A stretch of DNA of 64,000 nucleotides from Candidatus Methanomethylicaceae archaeon. GTDB lineage: Archaea; Thermoproteota; Methanomethylicia; Methanomethylicales; Methanomethylicaceae. The notes below the pieces were generated by a model. It searched no databases. It was not told the origin of the DNA and was given only the letters and a program-made list of their open reading frames with translations. Positions 6,058 through 55,664 of the stretch are shown here, in pieces. The translations under genes were made by a program, and so were the position numbers. The DNA is taken from positions 14,565 to 78,564 of the forward strand of contig JACTUC010000006.1 in the NCBI GenBank assembly GCA_015660995.1, read 5' to 3'. Within the stretch, counting starts at the first letter, position 1; every line of letters begins with the position of its first letter.

Positions 6058-7041
6058 CTAGCACAGCGGCTGGGCATCTATGCCTTTTTTCCTAAGTTTT
6101 GCAGCAAAACTGTCGGCATAGCCATGGACCGTGAAAACTTTTTTGGGGGAGCATTCATCAATAAAACACATCAGTTGGGTGTAGTCCGCATGCCCGCTGA
6201 GTACGAAAGATACGTCCGCGCTTCTCCGACCATAAGTTAATGCCCATCCTGTCACCGTTGCAGTCTTCGCATTTGGGTACACCGTGCTCAGATTTCTTGG
6301 ACCAAGCGATGCTGGGAACAGGCAGACGCAACTCTTGCTGCGCATAAGATCTTCCCCCTCCTTAGCCATGTCATAGAAGACTAAGTCTTCCCCCATTGAG
6401 TTGATCGCAGTGTTTGTTCTAGTTATGGAGGGGTGCGTTACCACAGGAATCGAGGTGTAAAGATTGAATAGCTTTGTAATCTCCTGAGCTTTTCCAACTG
6501 GGTAGACAAGAATAAATGGGAGATCTCCTTCCATAATTGTCTTCGCAGCCCAGTCGACAATGGTGTCGTAAACTTCATTTCTAGGCGGAAAAAGGAAGTT
6601 CGGTCTTCCAAATGTTGTCTCGATAACCAGAATATCACATTCATGCGGCTGCATAGCCTTTTGAGTCAACGTATCCACGAAATTAAAATCCCCTGTATAG
6701 AGAAAAGTCACACCATCTTGTTTAAGCAGAAGAGCTCCTGATCCAAAAACGTGCCCGGAGTTGATGATCCTGAGCTCAGTCTGATGGAGTCTCACTGGTT
6801 TATCATAAGCGCATGGTACTGCGTTCCTGACCTTCTTATTTGATATGGCTTCGAAAAGAGCGATAGTTTCACGCGTAGAATATTTTGGTTTCCTGGCGTC
6901 AATGAATGCGCCTGTATGATCCCGGTGGGCATGGGAGATGAAAGCACAATCTGCTGGACCAATTCGATTCGTGGGATCCAGAACTATCTTGAGGTCATGA
7001 GTCTGAACCATGATTCCATTGTGCCAACTTATTTCAACCAC
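6058..7041 (-). CDS. Metallo-beta-lactamase/beta-CASP nuclease (Snm1/ligase-associated exonuclease-like)
   Basis: SHAHRDH, GHVFGS, YTGDF, ETTFG, SGHADY, VHG motifs. Confidence 0.85.
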   Translation of the reverse strand: MVEISWHNGIMVQTHDLKIVLDPTNRIGPADCAFISHAHRDHTGAFIDARKPKYSTRETIALFEAISNKKVRNAVPCAYDKPVRLHQTELRIINSGHVFGSGALLLKQDGVTFLYTGDFNFVDTLTQKAMQPHECDILVIETTFGRPNFLFPPRNEVYDTIVDWAAKTIMEGDLPFILVYPVGKAQEITKLFNLYTSIPVVTHPSITRTNTAINSMGEDLVFYDMAKEGEDLMRSKSCVCLFPASLGPRNLSTVYPNAKTATVTGWALTYGRRSADVSFVLSGHADYTQLMCFIDECSPKKVFTVHGYADSFAAKLRKKGIDAQPLC

Positions 7042-7142
7042 TCAGTGCACCAGTAACCACTAAATAGCCGAGTCGTTTAAAAAGTTACTACTGAATAAGT
7101 TGTTAACTTTTCAAATGACTGATGATACGGGGATGAAACTTA

Positions 7143-11624: not shown

Positions 11625-12191
11625 ATGGTGGGATTACCGCCAACGCCTGCTGAGTTAAGAGCTTTGCGCAAGAAGGCAAACCTCACACAGAAAGAACTCG
11701 CAAAAAAAGCAGGAATGAGCCAATCATTAATTGCCAGAATAGAAGCTGGAGATGTTGATCCTCGCGTATCAACTCTTAAAAAGATACTAAAGGTTCTTAA
11801 TGATGTTTCTGAAATTAGGGTATCTTTAAAGAATGTGATGCATCAGCCCGTCATTACTGTTGATGCTGACGAAACTATAGGAAAAGCAGTTGATTTGATG
11901 TGGAAACGCGGAATCTCACAACTGCCAGTTATGCAAGAAGATCGCATTATTGGTAGTATAAAAGAAGAAACAATTTTAAAGAAACTCAAAGACGAAAATA
12001 TCAAAGAATTACTTAATCTTACAATTTCTCATTTACTTGAAGAATCTTTTCCTATTGTGAGCATTGAGACGAGCCTTGATGAAGTGTCAAGGTTACTTTC
12101 AAGCGGAAGCGCAGCAGTTCTAGTGAGTGAACATGGGCGCATGATGGGAATAATCACTAAAATCGATCTTATTGCAAAACATATGATGTGA
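11625..12191 (+). CDS. XRE-HTH + CBS-pair transcriptional regulator
   Basis: LRKKANLTQKELAKKAGMSQSLIARIEAG followed by two CBS domains. Confidence 0.9.
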   Translation: MVGLPPTPAELRALRKKANLTQKELAKKAGMSQSLIARIEAGDVDPRVSTLKKILKVLNDVSEIRVSLKNVMHQPVITVDADETIGKAVDLMWKRGISQLPVMQEDRIIGSIKEETILKKLKDENIKELLNLTISHLLEESFPIVSIETSLDEVSRLLSSGSAAVLVSEHGRMMGIITKIDLIAKHMM

Positions 12192-12203
12192 CTTATACTG
12201 CGT

Positions 12204-12219
12204 TGTGATATATATCACA
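12204..12219. promoter_or_regulatory. Perfect 16-bp palindrome TGTGATATATATCACA, candidate regulator site
   Basis: Read directly; intergenic, upstream of the 12342 gene. Confidence 0.5.
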
Positions 12220-12341
12220 GTGATTGTGAGAGAGTACAAGATAGTTAGTAAATTTTCGTGATTTATTGTCACTCACAACCAAAAACCTTAAAATATCAAA
12301 CACATCATATCATATACAAAAATACCAAAAAGGTGCCTAAT

Positions 12342-12950
12342 TTGGCTTTCTCTGAACGGACAGATAGGACAAATGATGAATTAAGAGGCGAATTGGCACT
12401 TATCAGACGCGATTTATTGGAAAGAATGAGAAGGCTTGAAGATTACATAATGGTTTTAGATTCAGACATACGAAGATTGGGTCTTGAAATACAAAGAATA
12501 AATGATAGATTGCAAGATATGCCGTTAGATAGATCAACAATACAAATAACAAAGCCAGAGATCATAAGATCTACATTACCTGAACAATCAATGATCAAAC
12601 CAGAACCTGAAAGCATGCAAGTTTCACAGATAACTCAAGCATCTTTGACTCCATTGGCTGCACAGGTTGTGAAGAATTTAGAAAAGAAGGAAGGACTCAA
12701 TCAGACAGAAGTAGCAATTATCAAGTATCTTATTGATAATCCTGGCACAAAGAGTGCAACTCCGATCGCTCAAACCGTTGGAAAAGCCAGGGAACACGTC
12801 GCGAGAACTTTGAAAAAATTAGCTGATGAAAAGAAGATCATCAGAGATGTAACAACATGGCCATATACTTATGTTGTACCTGAAGAAATCAGAAAAATTG
12901 TGCAAAGTCAAGCTACAGGAACATTTTCTCCGATGCCAAGTACTCAATAA
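12342..12950 (+). CDS. Coiled-coil + C-terminal winged-HTH protein
   Basis: Heptad-like N-terminus; C-terminal SATPIAQTVGKAREHVARTLKKLADEKKI. TTG start after AGGTG preferred over 12258. Confidence 0.75.
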   Translation: MAFSERTDRTNDELRGELALIRRDLLERMRRLEDYIMVLDSDIRRLGLEIQRINDRLQDMPLDRSTIQITKPEIIRSTLPEQSMIKPEPESMQVSQITQASLTPLAAQVVKNLEKKEGLNQTEVAIIKYLIDNPGTKSATPIAQTVGKAREHVARTLKKLADEKKIIRDVTTWPYTYVVPEEIRKIVQSQATGTFSPMPSTQ

Positions 12951-12999
12951 ACTTAAGCTTTGTGACGTATGATGTGATACAGAATTTACTATCACATTT

Positions 13000-13413
13000 T
13001 TATTTCTTATTTAAATCATTTATGAAGGTTTTAACATTGTTGTCGGCTGCAAAATTTATTATTAATTTGTATTGCCAACATGAACGGTTGCCTTTACGTT
13101 CTATATAGCCATTATTGTAAAGCCTTGTGAGGTATGTAGAGATTGTGCTCGATTTAATATTCTCACGATGTTGTTCTTTATATATTAAGGATATATCTTT
13201 ACTAGTGAACCAAGAGTTGTTTAGCTTGGTTTTTATCAGATCAGTGATCTTATCCATTGAAGTCTTTGTGACGGGTATTGATGATTGTTGATATTGATTA
13301 TTATCGAAAAGGCCAATGATCTGCAATAGCCGTTCCTTAGAAAATTGCCCACTTACAGCTACTGTGACTTGTTCCCCGTTTCCATCACAGAATTCTATCT
13401 TCATCTTCTTCAT
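13000..13413 (-). CDS. Small conserved-looking winged-HTH protein
   Basis: C-terminal WFTSKDI..STISTYLTRLYNNGYIERKG wHTH; short beta-rich N-domain. Confidence 0.75.
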   Translation of the reverse strand: MKKMKIEFCDGNGEQVTVAVSGQFSKERLLQIIGLFDNNQYQQSSIPVTKTSMDKITDLIKTKLNNSWFTSKDISLIYKEQHRENIKSSTISTYLTRLYNNGYIERKGNRSCWQYKLIINFAADNNVKTFINDLNKK

Positions 13414-13499
13414 AGACGGATCACTGAGTGAGCAGTTGTTCTCTCTACCATTTCACCAGTATATGAGCATATTGTGGTTAACATTAGCTTGTAAAAGAA

Positions 13500-14510
13500 G
13501 AGAAATTTCATGGTAATTATGGTTCAAAAAGGGGAAATTTCACCGTTTTTAGCTTTTTAAGCTAATATAAGGTGAATCACAGTGAATTGATTTATAAAAG
13601 GAGTGATTCACGCATCTGGAGTGGAAGTGAAGGGGTGAACTCTGAAATGTTTTAATATAAGATAGTACATGGTAATATCACAGTGGGCCTCATAAGCCTT
13701 AAAAATACAGTTTGATGTTATTTTATGATGATTCATTATCCAATGAACTAAGATAAAGTCACTATTATAAATGCAAAGGAAAATCAGCTAGATTTTTTTA
13801 GATAAAAAGCTCTAGGTTTAATGATCTGGAAACACCATTAAATGATTAACATCTCCATGATAAACATCTTCGATGATAGTAAAGTTTATATATTAGATTT
13901 CATGGTGATTTTGTGAGCACGAAATAGAGCAGTTTATAATGAATTATTTTGGAGGTGTTTGATGATAAAGTGTAATACTATATTTACATAACCGTTAAAA
14001 AATAGATGTAATTATACAGTCAAAAACTCTGTATTTGTGCGTATTGATTGTAATATACCTCTTACATAATTCTGAGCCTGATCCTATGTTTTATGACTAT
14101 TCTGAAGTGTATGTTTGTAGAATATTTTAATAGAGATAGGAATTTACACCATATATAATAGGCCAGACTATTGATTTTTATTTATTAGGTCTCTTCCATG
14201 AGGATTTCCACTGGAATATTCTTTAAACAACCATATAAAAAAAATAGAACAAGCTTTAAATAATGCTTCTAGAAAGCAGCAGAAAATTACTTATCCTTCA
14301 GACCCCATAATTTCGTTAGGAAGTTTATATCATTAATATGTTATATTCTTTCTTTAGAAAGAAAACAGTGTAAATGTTAATGTTAAGAACTTTATATAAA
14401 TAGATTACAGTCTAAAAAAATCGAGGTTAGACTCAAAAAAATGACAATTTATGATTTAACATAGCATTCTAGTTTTTGATAATGTTCAAAGGAAGGCATG
14501 GGGTCATGCT
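13500..14510. other. Candidate replication origin (ORB-like repeats around an AT-rich region)
   Basis: CTGGAGTGGAAGTGAAGGGGT (+13616-13636), TTCCAGTGGAAA (-14205-14216), TTCCTAACGAAATTATGGGGT (-14302-14322), GTTCAAAGGAAGGCATGGGGT (+14484-14504), all in about 1.1 kb of non-coding AT-rich DNA. Confidence 0.6.
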
Positions 14511-14537
14511 CTTATAATAGATGTTTTAAAATTACTG

Positions 14538-14846
14538 ATGATATTCATGTCCAATAATACTCTCGAAATTATTCAATTAATAGCACAGTATATTCCAAAA
14601 GAACAACGAATTCTACTTCTGAAAGATCTTCTCGAAGTACACGGGTCTATCTACAAGACTTCTAAAGTAACCAAGATCTCTAGGCCGCAGCTCTATAGTT
14701 ATTTGGCATCAGATAAGAGAAGTTATCCTAACGATCAAGTAACTGCAAGGATACTTGTTAGCTTAATGGATATAAAGAGGACTCTAATAAAAGATAGACT
14801 GCGGCAACTCTCAAAAGATTTTAATGAACTTATAAACAAGATATAA
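14538..14846 (+). CDS. Small HTH protein
   Basis: GSIYKTSKVTKISRPQLYSYL..YPND HTH-like segment. Confidence 0.7.
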   Translation: MIFMSNNTLEIIQLIAQYIPKEQRILLLKDLLEVHGSIYKTSKVTKISRPQLYSYLASDKRSYPNDQVTARILVSLMDIKRTLIKDRLRQLSKDFNELINKI

Positions 14847-15236
14847 ATAATTTTGTAAAAATAGTCATTATATCTTGATTTTATTAAAACATTTTTCTTA
14901 ATAACAATTCTTTCCAGTCATTTTTTTAAATATAAAATTTCTTTTTGTATTTTTTTTTGTTAAACGATCTGATCGTTTGACGGAAAGCTTGTATGTATTA
15001 ATATTATATCCTATTAAACTCATAACATCTTAGAATCAACAAATTATTCTTGCCCAATACTTTATTATAAGAACATAGAGAATTTAAGATTTTTAAATTA
15101 AATATGTCCTGTTGAGAATAAGGAACTATTTTTATCAATTCTTAATATTTAATTTGAATAAATTTTTTCAAATTCATACAGCAAGTTTATATTTAAGTTC
15201 GTAATAAAAACGAAAAACAGTAATAATGGCTCTCAA

Positions 15237-15644
15237 ATGTTTGGGGAGGATCTCGACACAGAAGTGAATCAGTCGTCCTGTCTTCAAGAAGAAAGAGGGA
15301 TCATAGGCAAACACGTCTATGGAAACCTTTATGGTTGCGATACCAAGTCGCTAAATGACGAGTCCGCTCTCAAGAATCTTGTTATTGAGGCTGCTAAAAT
15401 AGCTAAGATGACGATATGGGATACTAAGGTGTGGCGGTTTGGTGGTTCAAAAGGAGGATTGTCTGCCCTGGCATTGATTCTTGAAAGTCATATAGCTGTT
15501 CACACGTGGAATGACTTAGAATATGCAACTGTAGACGTGTTTACATGTGGCGAAAAAAGCGAGCCAGCGTTGGCATTTGATTATATAGTCTCAGTATTGA
15601 AGCCAAAATCAGTAACCCGGCATTTGGCCAATAGGTCCTCATGA
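15237..15644 (+). CDS. Pyruvoyl-dependent arginine decarboxylase proenzyme (AdoMetDC fold, crenarchaeal type)
   Basis: LESHIAVHTW cleavage motif. IIGKHVYGNLY, FGGSKGGLS and C-terminal RSS resemble the crenarchaeal ArgDC paralogue more than SAM decarboxylase. Confidence 0.75.
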   Translation: MFGEDLDTEVNQSSCLQEERGIIGKHVYGNLYGCDTKSLNDESALKNLVIEAAKIAKMTIWDTKVWRFGGSKGGLSALALILESHIAVHTWNDLEYATVDVFTCGEKSEPALAFDYIVSVLKPKSVTRHLANRSS

Positions 15645-15728
15645 ATAAATTATTGTTTTTTTATGAAAATTTTCTTATTTAGCAATTATTTCATAAATAG
15701 AAATTAGCGCTTTTGAAAATAGAAACAA

Positions 15729-16559
15729 TCACCCAAAACAAAACTCGCAGTATGGATCGCCATTTTTAATGCATTTTCTCTCAACCGTATTACCCTTCTT
15801 ATCCATCAATAAGGTTGCTAGACCTGTCAACATTCCTCTCATAAAACTGCTTTGATAACCTTTCAACTCTTTTGTGTTTAAACATTCAAAATTATCAAAA
15901 ACTCTTATATTAAAATTTTTATCTTGAGCACTTAAGATCTCAAACTTTCCCCAGCCAAGTAACTGAAGCTGTATTAATGCCACGTTGAGCTTATGCTGCG
16001 AATTGAGAGGTAATGCTTTTATTGGCCTCATTCCTTCTGCTGATTCTCGACCCATCATCCAAATTATCGAGAGCCCACCGGCCCCGAAGGTGTCGTATAA
16101 CGCTCCAAATAAATAACCCCAAAAAGGATGCGTGAATGCTGTTACAGGAATCTTACTTCCAACAACTTCTAGCATTAAAGGAAAGCTTTTTGTGTTGCAC
16201 ATTACGCCGGGAATATTGGTATGAATATATTCAAACACAACTAATTTTTGACCAAAAAGGCTACGAATATCCTTCTCTATTGTCTCTCTGGCATCGGTTT
16301 TGCCTGTCAGATCCAGTACCGCATAACATGAAACAGAGGCTTCGGTAGATCGATTTACCACCAATTGGTAAGGAACGCCTTTATCCATTAAAATTTTATC
16401 CAAGCCTTCAACATTGCTACTTTGGTCATGTTCATTGTTGACTGTTATATAGATTCCACAATAGTCCTTTTTTGGTTCATAGAAGATGTTGTCTATGAAC
16501 GTAGGATAATTCTTCTGTTCCTCAAGATGTTCCTTGCCTACTGAATCCAACGGTTCCAA
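15729..16559 (-). CDS. V4R-domain protein (N-terminal ACT-like region)
   Basis: LGWGKFE, DNFEC, SFMRGMLTG, ERKCIKNGDPYCEF. Confidence 0.85.
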   Translation of the reverse strand: MEPLDSVGKEHLEEQKNYPTFIDNIFYEPKKDYCGIYITVNNEHDQSSNVEGLDKILMDKGVPYQLVVNRSTEASVSCYAVLDLTGKTDARETIEKDIRSLFGQKLVVFEYIHTNIPGVMCNTKSFPLMLEVVGSKIPVTAFTHPFWGYLFGALYDTFGAGGLSIIWMMGRESAEGMRPIKALPLNSQHKLNVALIQLQLLGWGKFEILSAQDKNFNIRVFDNFECLNTKELKGYQSSFMRGMLTGLATLLMDKKGNTVERKCIKNGDPYCEFCFG

Positions 16560-22591: not shown

Positions 22592-22870
22592 GTGACTAAT
22601 CTCTTGATAATACTGCTCTCTGGCGATGGTAAGTTCTTGCTTGAAGGAAAAAGTTTGGACACAGCCCTCGAATCAGGCAGGCAGCTCTTCTCCCTCCTCA
22701 GGGAAGACCGGATTCAAGAGTTCTCCGAAGCTCTAGACGAGCTTCACTCGTTTGTGAAGCAGAAGGGGCAGCCAGTTGAGATCTATCACAATGCCGACAT
22801 AATAGTTCCGCCGGTAAAGTGCGATCCAAGGACCATCCAGTCGATTATGGGGTTTCAAAAAACACCGTAA
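22592..22870 (+). CDS. Hypothetical protein
   Basis: 92 aa ORF with upstream TTTAAA; protein-like composition; no motif recognised. Confidence 0.45.
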   Translation: MTNLLIILLSGDGKFLLEGKSLDTALESGRQLFSLLREDRIQEFSEALDELHSFVKQKGQPVEIYHNADIIVPPVKCDPRTIQSIMGFQKTP

Positions 22871-24162
22871 AAAGTGCCTACGACACCATCCCAAGACCGC
22901 TTCTCCGCCCCATACCTCTTGAATGGTTTGGTAAGGTGTCTCATCGCCCTTGGCGGAGGGAGATAGGCACCGTTTATCAACTTTCTATCGACTTTCTTCA
23001 GAACCGCCAATTCTGTCTTCAAACCGCATTTCTTACACTGATAGCCTTTACCCTTGCCTTCCGACTTCATACTCTTTTTGCAGTTCGGGCAGATCGGATT
23101 CGCCGGCGCTTCTGTTACAATGTTAAGAAGCTCAAGTCTCTCGAGGTTAAATGTCAGCTTACCACTCTCAAGAAGCCTGACTCCGCCGAACGCCCTCACT
23201 TTGTCCCCTAGCAGGAGATCCCTGACAATGTTCCTGAAGCTTCCTGAAGGCTCATAGCCCGCTATATCAATCTCACCCGAACTATCCCTCATTGATGCTA
23301 TTACGTGACTACCTTTGAGAACATATGGCACTCGCGATATTGTTCCCTCAATTATCGCAGCTTGATATGGCTTCAGCTCGGCTATCAATGCCGATCGAAT
23401 GAGATGCGCTCCTGTCCCTTGGTTGCTGCGACAGACCATCCACCTCTCGCCACCAACAAACTTGATCTTGGATAGTGCCTCCATAACCACCGAGGGACTG
23501 TCCCCTCTCACCCCGAAGAGTATCGGGTCAGGGCCATGAGGTGTTATGAGCACCCGATCTTCCTCAACATCAATGTTATTGAAGGTATGCGACGTGGTAT
23601 CCCTATCAAACATAAGCACGCTTTCGTGATCTACTTCCCTCTTTTTTCCCCAAAGGGCACTGCCGCGGTATGCTATCAGCTCGAATGTGTGGTCCCTTTC
23701 GAGGGCGTTGCCTATGGATGCGAGAGCGCCTACCAGGCCCCTGCCTCCTCTTATGAGCTCGTACTTCACGTTTGCCTTCAATGCTACATCCAGTGCTTCA
23801 GCAGGTGTTATGACATCCCATAGCGCCCGACGCCCAAGATCTCTTACGATCTGTGGAACTTGACCCTCAAGAATAGCTATGCCTGGCTGATTCTTACTAT
23901 CCTTCTTGTCCCTATACTCCTCCACTAAATCTGTTGCATTGCCGAGTATTCCCATAGCGTCTGTGTCTGATGTGAATCTGAGGCATATTGCCGCGTTTCC
24001 GCGGGACTTCCAGGGAACATTTGGGTTTAGCCTAATTAGGTTCGGGTAATCGACGAACTTAGAAATCTTAATTAATCTCTCAACAAGCAGGGCACCAATA
24101 TATGTCGTGCAACCTCGCTTCAGAGAGTCCGTATCATCGATGCCGAGATGATACAGCGCCAT
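22855..24162 (-). CDS. tiaS: tRNA(Ile2) agmatidine synthetase
   Basis: GIDDTD..GCTTY, RLNPNVPWKSRGN, PHGPDPILFGVRG, SNQGT, C-terminal Zn ribbon, RHLTKP. Confidence 0.96.
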   Translation of the reverse strand: MALYHLGIDDTDSLKRGCTTYIGALLVERLIKISKFVDYPNLIRLNPNVPWKSRGNAAICLRFTSDTDAMGILGNATDLVEEYRDKKDSKNQPGIAILEGQVPQIVRDLGRRALWDVITPAEALDVALKANVKYELIRGGRGLVGALASIGNALERDHTFELIAYRGSALWGKKREVDHESVLMFDRDTTSHTFNNIDVEEDRVLITPHGPDPILFGVRGDSPSVVMEALSKIKFVGGERWMVCRSNQGTGAHLIRSALIAELKPYQAAIIEGTISRVPYVLKGSHVIASMRDSSGEIDIAGYEPSGSFRNIVRDLLLGDKVRAFGGVRLLESGKLTFNLERLELLNIVTEAPANPICPNCKKSMKSEGKGKGYQCKKCGLKTELAVLKKVDRKLINGAYLPPPRAMRHLTKPFKRYGAEKRSWDGVVGTFYGVF

Positions 24163-25970: not shown

Positions 25971-26152
25971 ATTATTAATCCCCACAATCCAGTGTAATTC
26001 ATCTTGACCTATTTATCTTTCTTAGGAGCCATCGAATCGAGTTGCCATAATCCAAAAATGGACGACTGGCTTACGCTGAACATGGATAATCTCAATAAAT
26101 ATTATCGCACATGCATGGTTCCAGCTTTCACGGTTTCACCCAGGCTTAGAAG

Positions 26153-29221
<3,069 letters not shown>

Positions 29222-29348
29222 TACTTCTAAACCTAGTCTGGTGCCGGAAACACTGGAACCAATGCACGGCGGTAATCGCAAGGCAATCGTCACCCTGCTG
29301 CGCCCTTCGCTGGCAGAGTTTCCTCCCCAGCTGCATCTGCTGATTTTT

Positions 29349-30957
<1,609 letters not shown>

Positions 30958-31372
30958 TGTAAGACCTGAAGCTGACCCGGCGGCGTTAGCGCCGGCGTTA
31001 TTCAAGTCCCCATGATTATTACCGCGGCCGGAGAGCGATCGATCACCCCTCGGGCTAGGGCCCGTCTGGTCACGATCAGCGCCGCCGATAGGCCGCGGCT
31101 AGCGTTAATAGCACAGTTCGTGCACCCCCTAACTTGACAAGCCTAAATATATCTGTTATGCCTTGAACTCTTTATGAAAGACTGACGACATTCAGTGAAC
31201 TGTTCTACACGCCAGAATAAAGTAATGGGGGTCAGTGGCATCTGGATTGCTGGTCCACCATAAACTTTACCATCAGCGCCTGATTTTTATAATATCCCAC
31301 TCGACTTTTTCTGAAAATAGTATAATATACTCCCTGTTGGGCATACTTTATCTCTAGAAGGTATAGAATAAA

Positions 31373-31705
31373 ATGTCTCAGGAACTTAAGGTTCAGAAAG
31401 GCAACATTGTGGGCGTCCATTACATCGGCAAATTCCAGGGTGGCAAGATATTTGACACCTCCATGAGGAAGGTGGCGGAAAATGCCGGCATGTTCAACCC
31501 GTCAAGGGACTACAAGCCGCTCCAAGTCCAAGCGGGAGCAGGCCAGGTAATAAAAGGGTTCGACGACGCCCTTATCGGCATGAAGGTAAACGAGGAGAAG
31601 ACGGTCGCCATTCCGCCAGCTTTAGCGTACGGCGAGAAGGGAAAACATCCCCTTGCTGGTAAAACCCTCATATTTACTTTAAGGATCGTCACAATAAAAC
31701 GCTAA
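31373..31705 (+). CDS. FKBP-type peptidyl-prolyl isomerase (short form)
   Basis: VHYIG..IFDTS, GQVIKGFD, PPALAYG, HPLAGKTLIF. Confidence 0.9.
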   Translation: MSQELKVQKGNIVGVHYIGKFQGGKIFDTSMRKVAENAGMFNPSRDYKPLQVQAGAGQVIKGFDDALIGMKVNEEKTVAIPPALAYGEKGKHPLAGKTLIFTLRIVTIKR

Positions 31706-31722
31706 CTCGAAATATAAGGCTG

Positions 31723-32670
31723 CTAGTAGCACACCTTTTGATCCTTACCCTTCGTTAGGTAAGCATATGCCGATAGAATTGCAGTTGCGCCCTGCCCAGC
31801 GGCAATTATGGCCTGGGCATATGGAAAGTCTGTTATGTCTCCAGCTGCGAACATCCCCTCACAGCTGGTGCGGCAGGCTTTGTCAACAACTATCCTGCCC
31901 AGCTCATTGGTCTTCACTAAGCCCTTTACGTAATCTAGCTTTATATCTCTGCCAATATCGATGAAGGTCATTTCCACATCCAGCTCCTTACATTCGCCAG
32001 TGCACAGATTTTTCGCTGCGATCTTCTCCAGCCTCTTCCTCCCCTTCATCTCCTCCACCACCGTGTTAAGGAGAAACTCAACATTGGGGCAGCTCCTAAC
32101 CTTCTCCACCGTCACCTCATCGGACCTGAACTGGTCCCTCCTGTGTATCAAATAGACCTTCGCGGCTGTTTTGGATAGTACTTCTGCCCTCTGCAGGGCA
32201 GTATTTCCCCCGCCCACTATTGCCACGTTCTTGCCGATGGTCAGATCTAGGTTGCAAGTTAGGGATGTGCTTACTCCCTTACCTATTAACTCCTCTTCGC
32301 CTGGCACATTCAGCCTCCTGGGCATCCTGCCTCCCGTAACTATTACCGATCTGCTCATGAAGTCTCCAGCAGAGCTGTGCACCGTGAAAAGGCCGCTTTC
32401 CTTCTCGATCCTCTTCACCTCGCCAATGATTATCTCAGTGCCGTATTTTCTCGCCTGCTTCTCGAAGATTATCGCCAGCCCCGGGCCGCTCTTCTCGGTA
32501 TAACCAAGGTAGTTTTCAATGTTCTCGGTTAGAACCACCTGTCCCCCTATGTCCATGGTCAGTACCAACGTCTTCAGTAGCCTACGCCTGGCATAGATTG
32601 CCGCGGTCAGGCCAGCAGGACCCGCTCCGACAATGATTACATCATAGGTGTCTTCTGTCATTCCTCGCAT
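31723..32670 (-). CDS. Thioredoxin reductase-like flavoprotein with degenerate redox motif
   Basis: GAGPAGLTAA, GGGNTA, HRRDQFR, FAAGD; CxxC replaced by SLTC. Confidence 0.8.
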   Translation of the reverse strand: MRGMTEDTYDVIIVGAGPAGLTAAIYARRRLLKTLVLTMDIGGQVVLTENIENYLGYTEKSGPGLAIIFEKQARKYGTEIIIGEVKRIEKESGLFTVHSSAGDFMSRSVIVTGGRMPRRLNVPGEEELIGKGVSTSLTCNLDLTIGKNVAIVGGGNTALQRAEVLSKTAAKVYLIHRRDQFRSDEVTVEKVRSCPNVEFLLNTVVEEMKGRKRLEKIAAKNLCTGECKELDVEMTFIDIGRDIKLDYVKGLVKTNELGRIVVDKACRTSCEGMFAAGDITDFPYAQAIIAAGQGATAILSAYAYLTKGKDQKVCY

Positions 32671-48072: not shown

Positions 48073-49242
48073 TTGAGATATTTCACCAGCCCATACAACT
48101 TTCTTCACCAGGAATGCAGACAGATAAAGATCTACGATACGACCCTCAGGGATGGGGAGCAAACCCCGGGCGTCAAGTTCACGAAAGAGCACAAGGTCCA
48201 GATCGCGAGGAAGCTCGACACCTTGGGCGTGCACACAATTGAGGCTGGGTTCCCTGTAATATCCGCCTATGACGAGGAGGCAGTCAGGGCCGTCGCAGCC
48301 GAGCACCTCAGCGCCGACGTCATATGCCTTTGCAGGTCAAAGAAGAAGGACATAGATGCCGCGCTGAGGGCAGACGTAGACGGAGTAATAATATTCCTGG
48401 CTGTGTCAGATCTACACCTGAAGCACAAGCTGCACATTGATCTCACGACCGCCGTGAACATGGCAGCAGAATCAATCTCCTACGCTAAGGAGCACGGCCT
48501 CTATGTCCAGCTCTCGGCTGAGGATGCCACACGAACCTCGCTTGACTCGCTGACAGCACTCTACAGTGCAGCAGAGGAGAGCGGGGCAGACAGGCTAGGC
48601 ATTGCGGACACGACAGGTTGCATAAGACCCCAGGGGATGCACTACCTCGTGGAATCGCTGCGGAAGGTCTTTGACACAGAGCTCTCGGTCCATTGCCACG
48701 ACGACTTCGGGCTGGCAGTGGCAAACTCGCTCGCAGCCTACGAGGCTGGCGTGGATGCGATATCTGTCACAGTCAACGGTCTCGGCGAGAGGTGTGGCAA
48801 CGCTGCACTGGAGGAGGTCGTTATGGCTCTCTATTCCCTATACGGGGTAGACCTCAAGTTCAGGATCGATCTGCTCAAGTCACTCTCTGACATGGTCTCG
48901 GAGTACTCTGGTATCCCTATCCCGATAAACAAGGCCGTCGTAGGCCCCAACGCTTTCAGGCATGAATCGGGGATCCACGTGGCTGCCGTGATGAAGTGCC
49001 CGTTCACCTATGAATCCTACGAGCCGCAGCTGGTGGGTCAGGACAGGAAGCTAGTCTTCGGCAGGCACTCCGGGTCCGACGGCGTCAGGGAGAAACTCAA
49101 GTCCTTTGGCTTAGCTATCAGCGATGAAGAGCTTGCTGACATCGTAAGCCAACTGAAGACCCTACCGATGGACGCCTATCTCGATAACGATGGGCTAGCC
49201 GATTTCGCCAAGAAGATCCTGGCGAAGAGGGGCAGAAGTTGA
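48073..49242 (+). CDS. aksA: Methanogen (R)-homocitrate synthase
   Basis: MRYFTSPYN..IYDTTLRDGEQTPGV, DVDGVI.F...SDLHLKHKL, HCHDDFGLA, GLGERCGN, HESGIH; no LeuA regulatory domain. Confidence 0.85.
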   Translation: MRYFTSPYNFLHQECRQIKIYDTTLRDGEQTPGVKFTKEHKVQIARKLDTLGVHTIEAGFPVISAYDEEAVRAVAAEHLSADVICLCRSKKKDIDAALRADVDGVIIFLAVSDLHLKHKLHIDLTTAVNMAAESISYAKEHGLYVQLSAEDATRTSLDSLTALYSAAEESGADRLGIADTTGCIRPQGMHYLVESLRKVFDTELSVHCHDDFGLAVANSLAAYEAGVDAISVTVNGLGERCGNAALEEVVMALYSLYGVDLKFRIDLLKSLSDMVSEYSGIPIPINKAVVGPNAFRHESGIHVAAVMKCPFTYESYEPQLVGQDRKLVFGRHSGSDGVREKLKSFGLAISDEELADIVSQLKTLPMDAYLDNDGLADFAKKILAKRGRS

Positions 49243-50066
49243 GCAAAGGAGTCTATTCACTCGCCACATCCAACAAGGCAAAGGTGGCGGTTGGGCTCAA
49301 TTCGGACCTCCCGTCAGCGGAGAGGGTGGTGAACTCGGCCCTCTTCGCCAAGAGGGAAGGTTACGCCGAGCCAATTTTCATCTCTGCGAAGAAACCCGAA
49401 TCCCCCCTATTCGATGCAGTAGGCAAGGACATGTCTCTTATCGTGGACAAATCTCCACACGTGACACTGGTCGAGCTCCTGAAGGAAGGCACGGTGGATT
49501 CTGCCATCAGGGGCAACCTCGCTTCCAAGGAACTCATACCCCTGCTCCGCGAGGAGTTCAATTGTCCCAACCTCTGCCGCATCACCCTGCTCGACATAGC
49601 AAATAGGCTCGTTATGCTGGCGCCTGTGGGCATAGACGAGGGGGACAAGCTGGAGGACCTACTCATGATAGCAGGGCACGCAAAGAGGCTGGCAGAGGCG
49701 CTCAGGATGCCATGCAATGTCGCAGTCATCTCAGGAGGGCGGCTCGAGGACAGGGGAAGAAGCAAGAAAGTGGACAGCATGCTATCTGCCTCGGAATCGC
49801 TCACGAAGGAGCTGAAGGCGGTGGGTATTAGCGCTGTGAATGTCGGGATCGAGATCGAGCGGGCAATAGAGGGCGACTCAACCCTCATACTTGCTCCCGA
49901 TGGCGTGATGGGAAACCTGATCTTCAGATCGCTTGTCCTAGTTGGGAACGTCGAGAGCTTCGGGGCCTACGCGGCTGCACTGCCGAGGGTTTATGTCGAC
50001 ACCTCGCGGGCTAAGGGAAGCTTCATGCTGCCAATAGTCCTTGCCAGCGCCCTCAGCAAGCTTTAA
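49239..50066 (+). CDS. mtxX: Methanogenesis marker protein 4 (MtxX family)
   Basis: VDSAIRG, LAPVGIDEG, SGGRLEDRGRS..VD, APDG..GNLIFRSL, VDTSR. Confidence 0.88.
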   Translation: MSKGVYSLATSNKAKVAVGLNSDLPSAERVVNSALFAKREGYAEPIFISAKKPESPLFDAVGKDMSLIVDKSPHVTLVELLKEGTVDSAIRGNLASKELIPLLREEFNCPNLCRITLLDIANRLVMLAPVGIDEGDKLEDLLMIAGHAKRLAEALRMPCNVAVISGGRLEDRGRSKKVDSMLSASESLTKELKAVGISAVNVGIEIERAIEGDSTLILAPDGVMGNLIFRSLVLVGNVESFGAYAAALPRVYVDTSRAKGSFMLPIVLASALSKL

Positions 50067-50144: not shown

Positions 50145-51380
50145 TTGGGAAGCACAGCTGTTGAGAAGATAATTTCTCGTTCCGCGGGCCGAGCCGTGCA
50201 GGTGGGCGAGTTCGTCGAGGTTCCTGTAGATTTTGCCTATTTACACGATGGCACAGGCCCATTGATCGTAGATGCCCTCGGCAAGATGGGCGTTGAGAAG
50301 GTCATTGACCCAGACAGAGTGGGGATAGTCTTCGATCACTCCGTCCCGCCATACAGCGACCAGGCAGCAACTCTGCAAGCAAAAGTTAGGAAGTTTGCAA
50401 GGTCTCAGGGGATATTGAAGTTCCATGACCTCGGCGAAGGCATATGCCACCAGGTTATGCCCGAGAAGGGCTATGTCAGCCCTGGAACAGTTGTGATAGG
50501 CGCCGATTCCCATAGCTGCACTCTCGGCTGCTTCGGGCTCTTCTCATCTGGTGTGGGTGCAACGGACCTGGCCTACATACTCGCCACCGGGGGCACATGG
50601 CTCAAGGTCCCTGAGACTCTGAAGGTAGAATGCACAGGGGTTCTGAAAGGCAAGTTGTCGTCGAAGGACCTCATACTAGAGATCGTGAAGATGGTCGGGA
50701 CCGACGGCGCAACCTACAAGGCGCTTGAATTCAGTGGCGAGGCGGTCCGGCAGATGTCCCAATCATCAAGGATGACCATGTCCAACATGGCTGTGGAGAT
50801 GGGCGCAAAGACTGGATTCATGGAGGCGGACGCGAAGACATTCGAGTTCCTCGGCAGGACAGGTCCCGTCGTCAAGACCGACTCCAAGACCGAGACCGTG
50901 ACCGTCGATGCTGGCAGTCTCGATCCCAAGGTCGCCTGCCCGGGGAGCGTAGCCAACGTGAAATCAGTTGTAGAGGTAGAGGGTACCCACATCGATCAGG
51001 CATTCCTGGGCTCGTGCACCAACGGGAGGTATGAGGACCTCTACGAAGCCGCGAAGATAATAAAGGGGAAGAAGGTGCACCAGGATACTAGGTTCATTGT
51101 AATCCCCGCCTCGAAGACTATACAGCTGGCGGCGCAGAAGGACGGGCTCATGGACATATTCCAGGAAGCTGGCGCAATTATAGGTGTTACCGGCTGCGGG
51201 CCGTGCTTGGGCGTGCATATGGGGGTCTTGGGTGAGAATGAGGTCTGCGTATCCACTTCCAACAGGAACTTCATTGGGAGGATGGGTCACCCCAAGTCCT
51301 CGGTCTACCTTGCTTCCGCGCAGACGGTTGCGGCGTCAGCAGTCGAGGGGAAGATAACCGATCCAAGGAGGTTTGCTTGA
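50145..51380 (+). CDS. aksD: Homoaconitase large subunit
   Basis: [42 protein letters not shown]. Confidence 0.85.
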
Positions 51381-51868
51381 TGCTAAAAGGTCGAGTCTGG
51401 AAGTTCGGGGATGACGTCGACACCGATGTGATTATACCTGCAAAGTACCTCCGGTCTGTGGACCAGACTGTATGGCCGAAGCACGTTCTGGAGGGGCTCG
51501 ATCCCAGCTTCAGCTTAAAGGTGAAGCTTGGCGACATAATCGTCGCGGGTAAGAACTTTGGCTGCGGCTCCAGCAGGGAACAGGCAGCACTGGCGATCAA
51601 GTGGGCTGGTGTGGCTGCCGTGATTGCCGAATCCTTCGCTAGAATATTCTTCAGGAACGCCATAAACAACGGCCTACCCCTGATCGAATGCAGGGGGATA
51701 AGCAAGCTCGTGGAGGAGGGAGAGGTCATAGCGGTTGACCTCGATCGCGGCGAGGTCCGCACAAACAATGGGATGTTGAGGTCGGTCCCACTGCCGCCAT
51801 TCCTGCAGGAAATTGTCAACAGCGGTGGCCTCGTCGAGTACTATAAAGCAAGAAAGAAGGTGCATTGA
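51377..51868 (+). CDS. aksE: Homoaconitase small subunit
   Basis: [13 protein letters not shown] (YLRx loop of tricarboxylate-acting enzymes), [20 protein letters not shown]. Confidence 0.85.
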
Positions 51869-53473
51869 TTGTCTAGGATCACACAACGGGATGCCGGATC
51901 GCCCAACACATCCCAGGTCGTGGTGAAGGCCCTTGAGAAGCTCGGCATTGGCGTCGCCTTCGGCATACCAGGCATGTGGTCATTGCCAATCTATGATGCG
52001 CTCTGCGACTCGAAGATACGACACGTCCTCGTCAGGCACGAGCAGTTTGCGGCCTATGCTGCTGACGGGTACGCAAGGGCTTCCGGGAAGCCAGGCTTCT
52101 GCCTAGGCACGGCTGGACCTGGCGCAGTCAACATCGCAGCAGGCATCGCTGTGCCGTTCCGAGACCATTCCCCGGTCATCGCAGTGACCGGTCAGGTTCC
52201 CACTTTCGAGCAAGGGAAAGGATGGATAGAGGATCTCGACCTCCAGGCAATATTTTCTCCCGTTACCAAATCCACAGCGCAGATCTCGGACCCAACAAAT
52301 GCATACGAGACCATCACCGCCGCATACCTTTCATCAATCGAGGGGTGTCCCGGCCCCTCCCACGTAAGCATACCTGGGGATATCCAGAAGGCGCCATCCA
52401 AGATGAGGGATTACTCCCCGCTCCCTTCCAAGCCCGAACCCGACCCATCAGCCATCGACCAAGTCATGGACGCCATAGCCTCGTCGCAAGCCCCGCTCAT
52501 AATCTCAGGGTGGGGTGCAATCCTATCCGAATCCTCCGAGGGCATTCTGAAGCTCGCCGAGGCGCTTCCAGCACCCGTAACCACATCCTACATGGGCAGA
52601 GGAATAATACCGGAGGACAACCCGCTTTCCCTTGGTCCTGCAGGAAGAAGGGGGACGAAGGAAGCAAACGCTGCTCTCTCCAGATGCGACCTGCTCATAA
52701 CCCTAGGATGCAGGCTGACCAACCTGACGGTCGCGGGCGCTAAGCTGACCTGCAAAGTAGTTCAGGTGGATGTCGATGAAAACAACTTTTCATCCTACGC
52801 CTCGGTCAGGGTGAAAAGCGACGTTGCACTCTTCCTGGACGCAATACTGCCCAAAATCCAACATCGCTCAGGTGAACTTAACCCTCTGATGGGCTCTGTG
52901 AGCGAGCTGCCCGAAAAAGGGGAGGCCCCTGCCTTCGCCAGGGCCATCGCATCCTTCAATGATGCCCTATTCTCCCTCGACATTGGACAGCATACCATTT
53001 GGCTGATGCACGCGCTGAAGGTCAAGAGACCGCGGAGCGTGATCCTCTCGGGCAACCTCTCTGCAATGGGTTACTCCCTGCCTGCAGCCATCGGGGCAAA
53101 GCTGGCCTCGCCAGAACGCAGGGTCATTGTCGTGATCGGCGATGGCGGCTTCCAGATGACCGCCCCCGAGCTCTCTACCATCAGGGAGAACGACCTCGAC
53201 ATATCCATATGCGTATTCAACAACCGTACGCTGGGACTGATAAAGCAGCAGCAGGAGGTCGTCTACGGCAGGACGTGCGGTGTGGACTATACACGCCCTC
53301 CAGACTATGTCAAGCTTGCTCAAGCCTATGGCATTAAGGGACTAAAGATAGATTCCCCCTCCGCCCTCAAAGAAGCACTCCAGATAGCTGACGAGCCTAC
53401 GGTCTTTGATATTCCAATCCCAAAGAAGGAAGGCGTCGAGATGTCAAGACCTAGGATCCTCGACAATCAATGA
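51869..53473 (+). CDS. ThDP-dependent enzyme (three-domain decarboxylase/AHAS-like family), substrate unknown
   Basis: FGIPG, RHEQ catalytic Glu, GPG..N, GDGGFQM...NN; lacks AHAS-specific motifs. Confidence 0.85.
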   Translation: MSRITQRDAGSPNTSQVVVKALEKLGIGVAFGIPGMWSLPIYDALCDSKIRHVLVRHEQFAAYAADGYARASGKPGFCLGTAGPGAVNIAAGIAVPFRDHSPVIAVTGQVPTFEQGKGWIEDLDLQAIFSPVTKSTAQISDPTNAYETITAAYLSSIEGCPGPSHVSIPGDIQKAPSKMRDYSPLPSKPEPDPSAIDQVMDAIASSQAPLIISGWGAILSESSEGILKLAEALPAPVTTSYMGRGIIPEDNPLSLGPAGRRGTKEANAALSRCDLLITLGCRLTNLTVAGAKLTCKVVQVDVDENNFSSYASVRVKSDVALFLDAILPKIQHRSGELNPLMGSVSELPEKGEAPAFARAIASFNDALFSLDIGQHTIWLMHALKVKRPRSVILSGNLSAMGYSLPAAIGAKLASPERRVIVVIGDGGFQMTAPELSTIRENDLDISICVFNNRTLGLIKQQQEVVYGRTCGVDYTRPPDYVKLAQAYGIKGLKIDSPSALKEALQIADEPTVFDIPIPKKEGVEMSRPRILDNQ

Positions 53474-53518: not shown

Positions 53519-54490
53519 ATGGCGGAATACTATTCTAGAGACGCCATAGTGAAACTCCTTTCCTCGAAGAAATGGATCTCCCCCCATAAGAAGGTCGTCG
53601 TGGCCGTGGACAAGAAGGCTGGAGTGGCGGAACTTATCGAGGATCACGCCAGAGGAACATGCCTCGGGGGATCGGCTTGGTCGCTCTACCACTATACGGA
53701 GAACAGCAAGTCTGTCTTCTGGTCAAAGAGAGAGGGCTCGCGCCTCTTCTATAAGCTGAAGCTGTCTGAAGAGAATGCTCCAAGTAAGTTGGAGGCGAGC
53801 TACCACCCAGCATCCATAGAGTCGATCCACTTGGATGGTGACAAGGTAAGGGTGACCTATTCTGGGCTCGCCGGAGCTGGCGTGGCAGCCCTCAGCAGAG
53901 GCTTGGCAGAGGGTGTTGAGGCAGTTGAAGTTCAGGAATGGGGGGGTGGGAAGAAACTGGGCAGAGCAACCATCATCCTCCCACTGAAGGAAAAGCTGAT
54001 AATCGGCGTTGACGACACAGACAAATCCGATGAGGGCGCCACCTGGTCCTTGGTTAACGAGATTGCCTTTGAGATCTCAAAATTGGAGGGGGTCGACTAT
54101 CTTGAGCATGCCATTGTACAGCTCTACCCACAGAATCCCTTCAAGACCCAGAACTGCGTCTCCCTCTCCGTCTCATTCGCCGTCCCTCCGTCCCTAAAAG
54201 AAGGGATAGTAGAAAGGTTCAAAGACGCCATTGGGGAAAGGACGTTCTCCAAGGAGACCGCCATGGCATACTTCAATGGTGTAATGATCAAGGAAGAACT
54301 GATGGCTTTCTCCAAAAGGGCAAAGTTGGAGATGGTGACCGTTGAAGACGCGGAAGAGGCAGCAGAAATGGCTGGCGTCTCGACTATTAAAATAACGGGT
54401 GCTAGGGGGCTAATAGGTGCAGTAGCCGCAATACCCTATGTTGAGTATCCCGACGAAGCCGTTCGCATCTCTGGCGATCAAGTTGTTTGA
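53519..54490 (+). CDS. Methanogenesis marker protein 11 (TiaS-kinase-like C-terminal half)
   Basis: W..P.KKV, GLAGAGV..RGLAEGV, GGGKKLGRA, IGVDDTD..EGATW, VQLYPQNPFKTQNCVS. Confidence 0.85.
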   Translation: MAEYYSRDAIVKLLSSKKWISPHKKVVVAVDKKAGVAELIEDHARGTCLGGSAWSLYHYTENSKSVFWSKREGSRLFYKLKLSEENAPSKLEASYHPASIESIHLDGDKVRVTYSGLAGAGVAALSRGLAEGVEAVEVQEWGGGKKLGRATIILPLKEKLIIGVDDTDKSDEGATWSLVNEIAFEISKLEGVDYLEHAIVQLYPQNPFKTQNCVSLSVSFAVPPSLKEGIVERFKDAIGERTFSKETAMAYFNGVMIKEELMAFSKRAKLEMVTVEDAEEAAEMAGVSTIKITGARGLIGAVAAIPYVEYPDEAVRISGDQVV

Positions 54491-55664
54491 CTTTATCGTC
54501 GTCGGTTCTGGGGCGGGGGGCGCAACTGTAGCCAAGGAACTCTCCGCAGCGGGAAAGAAGGTGCTGCTGCTTGAGAGGGGCATACAACTGCCACCACGAA
54601 AGTCCTCCAAAGCATACTCTATTCTGAAATCCGACGTGGAGGTCTGGCATACCCAATGCCTGGGCGGAACAACGGTGGTTACCATGGGCAACGCTGTCAG
54701 GAGCAAGCTCGATGGTTCACTTTCGCGTTATTACGCCGAGGCAGAGGAGGGGCTTGGGGTTATCCCGGTGCCGGAAGACCACTTGGGCATGGCAACCAAG
54801 TCACTGCTCTCCCTCTCAGATGAATGGGTCAGAATGCCCAAGGCTATAGACTTCAGTAAGTGTAGAGGCTGTGGGCACTGCTCCTCGGGGTGTCCGACAT
54901 CGGCCAGATGGGACGCCACAGCCTATATTCGGGAGGCTATCTCTAACAGCTGCAAGGTTTCTACCAGTGTCGACATAAAGAAAGTATTGATTAAGGGCAA
55001 TAGAGCGGTGGGCGTTGAAGCCTCTGACGGAAAAACCTTCGAAGCTGGCGGCGTAATCCTAGCTGCAGGAGCCATCGAAACGCCTAGGATCCTATCACGA
55101 TCAGGCATAATCTCGGCTGGGAAGGGGCTCTTCGTCGACACCTTCGTAACCATCGGGGGCTTTAAAAGAGGTGTTTCGATGGATCGGGAGCTCGGTATGG
55201 CTGCCTTTCTAAAGAGGGAAGGTTACCTGATATCACCTCATTACTCAAGTTTTCTACCCAATCTGATAGAAGAGAAAGGTGTGTCGCTCAAACCATCCGA
55301 CATATTGAGCCTAATGGTAAAGATTGAAGATGAGCCCATCGGCGAGGTTACCCCAAATGGCATTGTTAAAACCATATCACGGCGGGACTCTACCCTTTTG
55401 GAGAGTGGTAAGCGCGAAGCGATGGAGCTTCTAATCAAAGCCGGGGTAGACTCGGACACAGTTGTATCTGTACACCCAAGGGGCGCACACCCAGGCGGAA
55501 CCTGTTCCAATATGGTGAAATCGCCTTTGGAAGCTAGCACAGAGATTGACTCCCTGTACATCTCGGACGCGAGCATACTTCCCGGTCCATTTGGCCTGCC
55601 GCCAATGCTCACAATAATCGCAATTTCCAAGAGGATATCTGGCATACTACTTGGAAGAGCCTAG
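54483..55664 (+). CDS. GMC-family FAD oxidoreductase with CxxCxxCxxxC motif
   Basis: VGSGAGG, CRGCGHCSSGCP, LAAGAIETPRIL, HPGGT, DASILP..G.PP.LTI; TTG start overlaps the Mmp11 stop. Confidence 0.85.
   Translation: MFDFIVVGSGAGGATVAKELSAAGKKVLLLERGIQLPPRKSSKAYSILKSDVEVWHTQCLGGTTVVTMGNAVRSKLDGSLSRYYAEAEEGLGVIPVPEDHLGMATKSLLSLSDEWVRMPKAIDFSKCRGCGHCSSGCPTSARWDATAYIREAISNSCKVSTSVDIKKVLIKGNRAVGVEASDGKTFEAGGVILAAGAIETPRILSRSGIISAGKGLFVDTFVTIGGFKRGVSMDRELGMAAFLKREGYLISPHYSSFLPNLIEEKGVSLKPSDILSLMVKIEDEPIGEVTPNGIVKTISRRDSTLLESGKREAMELLIKAGVDSDTVVSVHPRGAHPGGTCSNMVKSPLEASTEIDSLYISDASILPGPFGLPPMLTIIAISKRISGILLGRA

Follow-up and report, generated by a model that had tools for sequence, protein, structure and literature searches.

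Methanogenesis marker protein 11 (Mmp11) is encoded at positions 53519-54490 (+ strand, 323 residues) of a 64,000-nucleotide stretch from the genome of a Candidatus Methanomethylicaceae archaeon (contig JACTUC010000006.1), the whole of which is called the window here. The protein keeps the catalytic core of TiaS, the tRNA(Ile2) 2-agmatinylcytidine synthetase, and has lost every RNA-binding part of that enzyme, while its gene stands among the chain-elongation (Aks) genes of coenzyme B (CoB) synthesis. Because TiaS motifs are kept, RNA-binding parts are absent and the gene belongs to an Aks cluster, an ATP-dependent small-molecule kinase or ligase is the best-supported reading. Mmp11 is very probably an enzyme that uses ATP on a small molecule rather than on tRNA, and it probably works in the late pathway to CoB or to a CoB-like thiol cofactor. 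As to its exact task, we tentatively favour a phosphotransferase acting with the neighbouring protein Mmp4, most likely to activate a carboxyl group for the amide bond with threonine; carboxyl activation in itself is put forward with slightly more reserve again.

CoB supplies the electrons for methyl-coenzyme M reductase (MCR) in all methane-forming and all methane- or alkane-oxidising archaea. To our knowledge, only the Aks chain-elongation genes of its synthesis have been assigned, and the decarboxylation, the thiol insertion, the formation of the threonine amide and the phosphorylation have been activities without genes since the 1990s. Mmp11 is a testable candidate for one of these last steps because it is located within a CoB gene cluster.

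A TiaS-Type Kinase Core without RNA-Binding Parts

Mmp11 matches NCBIfam TIGR03280 over profile positions 2-291 of 292 (E = 1e-94, 316.9 bits), and it belongs to this family on both counts, with a score above the curated cut-off of 255.8 and a host that has MCR (the source genome encodes McrA, 945.7 bits). Its TiaS-type kinase domain (TCKD) occupies residues about 157-310 (53987-54448, + strand) and was delimited with PF22641, hhalign, the TiaS structure 3amt_A and Foldseek. Pfam PF22641 (TiaS_TCKD) is matched over profile positions 1-154 of 156 (E = 1.3e-17, 64.7 bits, cut-off 27). Against the TiaS encoded in the same window, BLASTP gives 28% identity over 151 residues (E = 1e-10), and when an alignment of 21 Mmp11 sequences is compared with one of 9 TiaS sequences, hhalign returns a probability of 99.8% over 148 columns (E = 6.9e-28). 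The initial annotation had called for a superposition of an AlphaFold model on TiaS, and this bears the likeness out. The AlphaFold2 model of Mmp11 (predicted local distance difference test, pLDDT, 92.1; predicted template-modelling score, pTM, 0.90) retrieves TiaS entries as all top 9 PDB matches in Foldseek, and VIA-align places it on 3amt_A with Z 21.8 and a root-mean-square deviation (rmsd) of 1.9 Å over 153 residues, while no unrelated row exceeds Z 7.6. The likeness between the two proteins is thus far above chance.

The comparison protein, encoded at 22855-24162 (- strand, 435 residues), is a divergent TiaS with all four domains: it matches NF040849 with E = 2.7e-116 and 388.6 bits, below the cut-off of 600, and Pfam finds in it the TCKD, the FLD as a separate stretch (140-253), the OB fold (271-346) and the Zn ribbon (355-395). 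Neither the OB fold (PF01336) nor the Zn ribbon (PF23783) has a Pfam match in Mmp11, just as the initial annotation had held in describing TiaS motifs without tRNA-binding domains. That description was incomplete, since the separate FLD, which it did not mention, is missing too: Mmp11 stops 20 residues past the GxxGxxA motif. PF08489 gives a weak match (27.7 bits, residues 195-255) that falls within the TCKD match. The TiaS equivalog NF040849 yields 49.3 bits against its cut-off of 600, and over profile positions 3-152 of 422 only. The catalytic core is kept and every RNA-binding part is missing.

Within this core, the motifs first picked out by comparison within the window are all found at their places in both proteins. 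The residue map, numbered on the window TiaS, was drawn from the BLASTP and hhalign alignments. TiaS has GIDDTD at 7-12, GCTT at 17-20, RLNPNVPWKSRGN at 44-56 and GRGLVGALA at 140-148. Mmp11 answers with GVDDTD at 163-168 (54005-54022) and GATW at 173-176, a unit (54005-54046, + strand) that holds the acidic motif D165/D166/T167/D168 and T175; with the QLYPQNPFKTQNC loop at residues 201-213 (54119-54157, + strand); and with the Gly-rich ARGLIGAVA at 295-303 (54401-54427, + strand). TiaS D9, D10, T11 and D12 correspond to D165-D168, T19 to T175, K52 to K209, and G142, G145, A146 and A148 to G297, G300, A301 and A303. T19 of the window protein is equivalent to Thr18 of the A. fulgidus enzyme. 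In 40 cluster representatives, paralogues included, D165, T167, T175, G297 and G300 are invariant, and D166, D168, G173 and A174 are at least 90% conserved. In 21 Mmp11 sequences, Q201, L202, P207, K209, T210 and N212 are invariant, with C213 conserved in at least 90%. The claim that Mmp11 carries the ATP-activating motifs of TiaS thus stands for the acidic, Thr, Lys and Gly motifs. It does not extend to R44 and R54, invariant in TiaS and replaced in Mmp11 by Q201 and Q211; likewise C18 has become A174 and N56 has become C213. The only cysteines of Mmp11, C48 and C213, are both conserved.

The kinase domain is preceded by a domain of a different kind, as had been supposed from the letters alone. 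Residues 1-156 (53519-53986, + strand) have no Pfam match. Modelled alone, they fold with a pLDDT of 93.1 and find no recognisable relative among solved folds (best VIA match Z 5.8, best Foldseek E 0.062), and a protein atlas search with residues 1-158 returned their own family only (scores 0.76-0.81). Conserved features are E41, C48, W54, Y59, R127, a YxGLxGxGV loop (114-123) and GGG (142-144); in 26 diverse sequences E41, W54, Y59, G73, L91, G116, L117, G119, G121, R127, G143 and G144 are invariant, and C48 is missing from the sequence of locus L069. With the whole model, Foldseek gives weak rows to SerB2 and to aspartate kinase (rmsd 12-16 Å); an ACT or ferredoxin-like ligand-binding fold was considered on their account but not retained, the isolated domain having matched nothing above noise. 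Because it takes the place of the parts with which TiaS grips its RNA and substrate, this domain presumably holds the substrate of Mmp11.

The homology between Mmp11 and TiaS is existing database knowledge and not new. PF22641 is precomputed on all 120 homologues listed, and PF08489 on most of them; their source names run from 'DUF1743 domain-containing protein' through 'methanogenesis (imperfect) marker protein 11' and 'marker protein 11' to 'hypothetical', and COG1571 corresponds in part to the TIGR03280 family. Open-access text, supplements excluded, yielded no paper that gives the Mmp11/TIGR03280 family a function, nothing on function for DUF1743 or COG1571, no paper that ties genes to the later CoB steps, and only unrelated papers for TiaS together with coenzyme B. 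The M. maripaludis member, MMP1593, appears in a table of Gao and Gupta (2007), and its label in the literature is 'hypothetical protein'. The 1.63-Mb source genome holds a single full-length copy of Mmp11, whose closest relatives (69-79% identity) carry the names Candidatus Methanosuratincola or Methanomethylicia, in keeping with a methanogen of Methanomethylicia type. The stretch itself is present in 24 DNA sequencing runs from peat and wetland metagenomes, with no RNA run listed.

The Gene Row of the Window and Its Counterparts

Mmp11 is the sixth of seven genes on one strand. The row opens with an AksA-like gene of the homocitrate/isopropylmalate synthase family (48073-49242, + strand; HMGL-like and HCS_D2 domains; 468.5 bits for TIGR02090, below the cut-off of 484.75) and continues with Mmp4/MtxX (49239-50066, + strand, 275 residues; TIGR03270 186.2 bits, cut-off 190). 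The homoaconitase-type large and small subunits HacA (50145-51380) and HacB (51377-51868) follow, together spanning 50145-51868 on the + strand; they score 522.8 bits for HacA_Meth (NF040615, cut-off 550) and 200.1 bits for HacB_Meth (NF040604, cut-off 230). Next comes a thiamine diphosphate (ThDP)-dependent enzyme of 534 residues (51869-53473, + strand) with three thiamine pyrophosphate domains, which ends 45 nt upstream of Mmp11. It reaches 400.1 bits, below the acetolactate synthase cut-off of 538, and a true acetolactate synthase (776.5 bits) is encoded on another contig (C20); the window enzyme is not the acetolactate synthase of the cell, and could be the decarboxylase of 2-oxosuberate. 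The last gene overlaps the end of Mmp11 and encodes a GMC-type flavoprotein of 408 residues (54438-55664, + strand; GMC_oxred_N and Fer4). Its inserted CxxCxxCxxxC, a ferredoxin-like C142-x2-C145-x2-C148-x3-C152 motif, sits inside the GMC N domain, and this iron-sulfur (FeS) flavoprotein is a candidate reductase for thiol formation.

Is this arrangement a peculiarity of one genome? In 94 loci, tblastn was used to look for probe genes no more than 6 kb from Mmp11; 80 of these loci came from a genome contig search and 14 were picked, with a preference for single-contig genomes and different score classes, from 69 family-positive genomes of a second phylum sample. Linkage to Aks or ThDP genes is seen repeatedly, in five or more distinct types of lineage. 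In the 18 Methanomethylicia-type loci (L003-L020), the ThDP gene is adjacent in 18/18, HacA/HacB are present in 17/18, and a GMC-like gene lies at most 28 nt away in 17/18, the remaining locus (L015) being too short for the test and giving a partial match. HacA-HacB-AksF stand upstream of Mmp11 in 30 of the 40 Methanobacteriaceae-type loci, most of the others having short flanks, and the HacA of L058 exceeds the HacA_Meth cut-off (588.5 against 550). AksA is directly upstream in two loci from Thermoplasmata metagenome-assembled genomes (L037, L039); the order in Methanofastidiosum L069 is Mmp11-AksA-ThDP-GMC; and two of the 14 picked loci, of Halobacteriota type (L091, L096), read paralogue-Mmp11-radical SAM-ThDP-AksA-HacA-HacB-AksF. 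The ThDP enzymes beside Mmp11 differ in type: in L085, L086, L089 and L095 a divergent, IOR-alpha-like enzyme of 513-546 residues directly follows Mmp11, while L091 and L096 have a short one of 393-438 residues.

Sulfur and redox genes are the other recurrent company. In 37/40 Methanobacteriaceae-type loci a SufS-like gene lies 0.7-2.5 kb upstream of Mmp11, separating it from the HacA-HacB-AksF genes; the one in L058 (7086-8282, + strand; 409.3 bits, cut-off 475.1), between AksF and RibH-Mmp11, resembles a SufS-family cysteine desulfurase or C-S lyase. It may serve the formation of the CoB thiol as sulfur donor or as lyase. In 21/94 loci Mmp11 is abutted or overlapped by a radical SAM gene, and those of L021 and L023 belong to TIGR04043, the MSMEG_0568 family (330.9 and 304.1 bits, cut-off 303.7); the best match of that family in the window genome reaches only 71.6 bits. 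ComDE is found about 2.9 kb from Mmp11 in L081, L093 and L094, and L081 also has a cysteate-synthase-like gene nearby. At 7/94 loci none of the probe genes is near, and in L090 the neighbours of Mmp11 are HycI, TfuA and YcaO.

Elsewhere in the window, two stretches are poor in long open reading frames (ORFs) and may represent an RNA operon or an island: a low-GC one at about 12000-16000 (0.31-0.34), with no ORF of at least 140 residues between 12950 and 15729, and a high-GC one of 5.7 kb (25985-31723; 0.56), with no long ORF.

Mmp4, Phyletic Patterns and Paralogues

By sequence comparison, Mmp4/MtxX belongs to the phosphotransacetylase/butyrylase (PTA/PTB) family. A profile of six Mmp4 sequences matches 9nzy_A (MTH_231, solved but unannotated) with E = 9.2e-59, and PTB and PTA chains with E values from 9.6e-11 to 1.7e-5 (PTB 7vg9, 9.6e-11; PTA 1r5j, 3.2e-10). 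Members of this family exchange phosphate for thiol on an acyl group. The gene adjoins Mmp11 in L021, L022 and L023, and in L027 it adjoins the radical SAM gene next to Mmp11. A complex prediction for the two proteins returned a score of 0.00, which is no answer and counts neither way.

The two genes travel together across genomes. Phyletic lists were compared by hand, and related genomes are not independent, so the following counts overstate the support: among 301 genomes of the same phylum, Mmp11 over the cut-off, Mmp4 and McrA are each found in 28, with 26 genomes having Mmp11 and Mmp4, two Mmp11 only, two Mmp4 only and 271 neither, and with McrA in 25 of the 28 Mmp11-positive genomes. In the second sample (121 genomes), McrA accompanies Mmp11 in 54 of the 61 genomes where the latter exceeds its cut-off. 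As a marker of MCR, Mmp11 is imperfect in both directions. Mmp4 follows Mmp11 and not McrA: in 20/20 genomes tested its presence tracked that of Mmp11, being found in 5/5 genomes with McrA and Mmp11, in 5/5 with Mmp11 and no McrA, and in 0/10 with McrA and no Mmp11. In a search with HacA_Meth, genomes with McrA and no Mmp11 gave HacA-family matches that are all below the cut-off; those with Mmp11 and no McrA carry two or three HacA-family genes each, one of which, in G349, is over the cut-off.

In three single-contig genomes without a McrA match (G349, G363 and G369; loci L087, L093 and L094), Mmp11 has a radical SAM gene next to it and is accompanied by Mmp4, by a divergent gene resembling thioredoxin reductase and by HacA-family genes that score close to the HacA_Meth cut-off; G363 and G369 also carry ComDE. 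These gene sets hint at the synthesis of thiols like coenzyme M or CoB outside methane metabolism.

Many genomes have one or two extra full-length Mmp11 paralogues, often in tandem, and tandem TCKD paralogues keep DDTD, GATW and the Lys in both copies, which fits two ATP-dependent steps. The tandem paralogues of L091 (7857-8813, - strand) and L096 (6884-7900, + strand) keep their motifs intact and have, in 'RLIQLNP', an Arg as in TiaS. Elsewhere, L098 encodes a paralogue fused to a helix-turn-helix domain (6695-7813, + strand), downstream of homoserine dehydrogenase, and L097 a degenerate one (6917-7894, - strand) reading DDTG...TETWE.

A Proposed Role and Its Alternatives

In the reading that we tentatively prefer, Mmp11 would be built from a TiaS kinase domain and a family-specific N-terminal substrate domain, and would act after 2-oxosuberate in CoB synthesis, alongside Mmp4. 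At the site formed by DDTD, Thr175 and Lys209, an oxygen of the substrate would receive the phosphoryl group of ATP, much as the C2 carbonyl of cytidine does in TiaS. The likeliest target would be the carboxylate of 7-mercaptoheptanoate, which would become an acyl phosphate; L-threonine would then displace the phosphate through its amino group, with Mmp4 as the transferase that uses the acyl phosphate, to give 7-mercaptoheptanoyl-threonine. The threonine hydroxyl may be phosphorylated too, to give CoB, either by the same site or, in genomes that have one, by a tandem paralogue. Such a second activity is conceivable because TiaS is a dual kinase, acting on the carbonyl oxygen and on the hydroxyl of its own Thr18 (PMC11938285).

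Carried to its limit, this proposal would make the seven-gene row the entire missing second half of CoB synthesis. The ThDP enzyme, which resembles acetolactate synthase, would decarboxylate 2-oxosuberate, the FeS-flavoprotein would form the thiol, and Mmp11, as a dual-specificity kinase, would make 7-mercaptoheptanoyl phosphate, passed by Mmp4 to threonine, and would then phosphorylate the threonine hydroxyl. So complete a scheme is rather unlikely to hold in every part.

Several observations weigh against the preferred assignment. What the data show is the homology, the fold, the residues conserved, the neighbourhoods of the gene and its phyletic pattern; the substrate, the products and the partnership with Mmp4 are what we infer, the substrate from context only, and the details of TiaS chemistry on which the mechanism is modelled are those reportedly established in 2011 by Terasaka and by Osawa. 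With R44 and R54 replaced by Gln, the handling of the nucleotide may differ in Mmp11. The genes found closest to Mmp11, and most often, encode ThDP enzymes that form aldehydes and enzymes of sulfur or redox chemistry (radical SAM in 21/94 loci, SufS-like in 38/94, thioredoxin-reductase-like, FeS-flavoprotein), and among the loci screened no neighbour has an evident link to threonine, so that a thiol-forming step fits as well as the amide step. In the second sample, 11 of 67 McrA-positive genomes have no Mmp11-family match, and the 10 of these tested (10/10) also lack Mmp4; in the same-phylum sample, one McrA-positive genome that is 100% complete (G002) has neither. If Mmp11 made an obligatory bond of CoB, such genomes would need another route. 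Conversely, 7/61 genomes with a true Mmp11 have no McrA match, three of them being single-contig (G349, G363, G369). The existence of McrA-positive genomes that lack both proteins, and of McrA-less ones that have both, speaks against a simple model in which the two are essential for CoB in all.

Why, then, prefer carboxyl activation? Of the three steps proposed in the initial annotation for a small-molecule kinase or ligase of CoB synthesis (activation of 7-mercaptoheptanoate, phosphorylation of threonine and sulfur insertion through Cys213), none is singled out by the evidence, and it is the general proposal that comes through best. A PTA/PTB-like partner favours carboxyl activation; the genes nearby (ThDP, radical SAM, SufS-like and FeS-flavoprotein) and the pair of conserved cysteines fit a sulfur step equally. 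The latter is nearly as good a reading, and in the specific form that follows we grant it a modest chance. Mmp11 would phosphorylate the oxygen of an aldehyde-derived intermediate (the hydrate or thiohemiacetal of 7-oxoheptanoate or, for coenzyme M, sulfoacetaldehyde), and sulfide or persulfide would displace the phosphate; the FeS-flavoprotein or the radical SAM enzyme, as lineage-specific reductases, would give the thiol, with Mmp4 exchanging phosphate for sulfur. Mmp11 does lie directly beside the ThDP enzymes expected to form aldehydes, and the nearby ComDE and cysteate-synthase-like genes, the overlapping radical SAM genes and the upstream SufS-like genes all point the same way. Other routes from aldehyde to thiol exist (ComF/MJ1681, COG1900), and they could account for the McrA-positive genomes without Mmp11. 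However, the sulfur and redox neighbours vary by lineage while Mmp11 is constant, as would be expected of enzymes for another step in this pathway; L069 has lost C48; and no precedent is known to us for a kinase-driven thiolation of an aldehyde.

A comparably small share of our expectation goes to the view that Mmp11 and Mmp4 make or modify some other small molecule, for example a thiol or amide cofactor, and that proximity to Aks genes reflects shared regulation only. The phyletic pattern speaks for this, with the pair present in all five McrA-less genomes tested and missing in ten McrA-positive ones, as do the HycI, TfuA and YcaO neighbourhood of L090 and the seven loci with no probe gene. 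It sits poorly with an Aks/ThDP linkage that recurs in so many lineage types, and the McrA-less genomes, with their two or three HacA-family genes, may themselves make a CoB-like compound. Appreciably less likely is a Mmp11 that serves as the final kinase only, converting 7-mercaptoheptanoyl-threonine and ATP into CoB after another enzyme has made the amide bond. The TiaS domain does phosphorylate the hydroxyl of a threonine, namely Thr18 of TiaS itself, Mmp11 retains the catalytic motifs, and its gene lies within the CoB cluster; yet this would leave the tight partnership with Mmp4 without a role, and the conserved row holds no other candidate for an ATP-using ligase. Finally, it is very improbable that Mmp11 is a TiaS-derived kinase acting on RNA or protein, or a regulator of that origin: the fold and the autophosphorylation-site Thr are kept and a helix-turn-helix-fused paralogue exists, but the OB fold, Zn ribbon and FLD are all absent, R44 and R54 are replaced, a full TiaS is encoded separately in the same window, and the Mmp11 gene is found in metabolic operons.

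Significance and Comparison with Known Systems

Were the assignment to late CoB synthesis correct, the gap in that pathway could be tested directly on a handful of genes (Mmp11, Mmp4, the ThDP enzyme and the FeS-flavoprotein), and these would offer new methanogen-specific targets for methane mitigation. The TiaS fold would have been redeployed, with a new domain, for one or two steps of CoB synthesis, whereas we know of this kinase fold so far only from the tRNA enzyme. If, beyond this, the complete scheme for the seven-gene row held, the presence of Mmp11 and Mmp4 in MCR-less genomes of Archaeoglobi type would suggest that a CoB-like thiol cofactor is used beyond methane metabolism.

Among known systems, the nearest in structure is TiaS itself (3amt, 3amu, 4rvz and 5xob, with the P. 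furiosus fragment 3u02), with which Mmp11 shares the TCKD fold, DDTD, the counterpart of Thr18, Lys209 and GxxGxxA. In contrast to TiaS, Mmp11 has no FLD, OB fold or Zn ribbon, possesses an N-terminal domain of 156 residues that TiaS lacks, and is encoded in metabolic operons of a genome that has its own TiaS. With respect to marker protein 11 as defined by TIGR03280, it is a full member and shows no difference. The ack-pta and buk-ptb pairs offer a parallel in organisation, for there too a kinase gene travels with a gene of the PTA/PTB family, and by analogy this suggests that Mmp11 and Mmp4 form an acyl-phosphate relay. The kinases of those pairs have the ASKHA-family fold and their acceptor is coenzyme A, whereas Mmp11 has the TiaS fold and the acceptor proposed here is an amine or a sulfide. 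Lastly, in Nit1C-type clusters one finds the MSMEG_0568-family radical SAM enzyme (TIGR04043), and it is the same radical SAM family that abuts many Mmp11 genes; the window genome differs in having no such enzyme, the slot of the partner being occupied there by the ThDP and FeS-flavoprotein genes.

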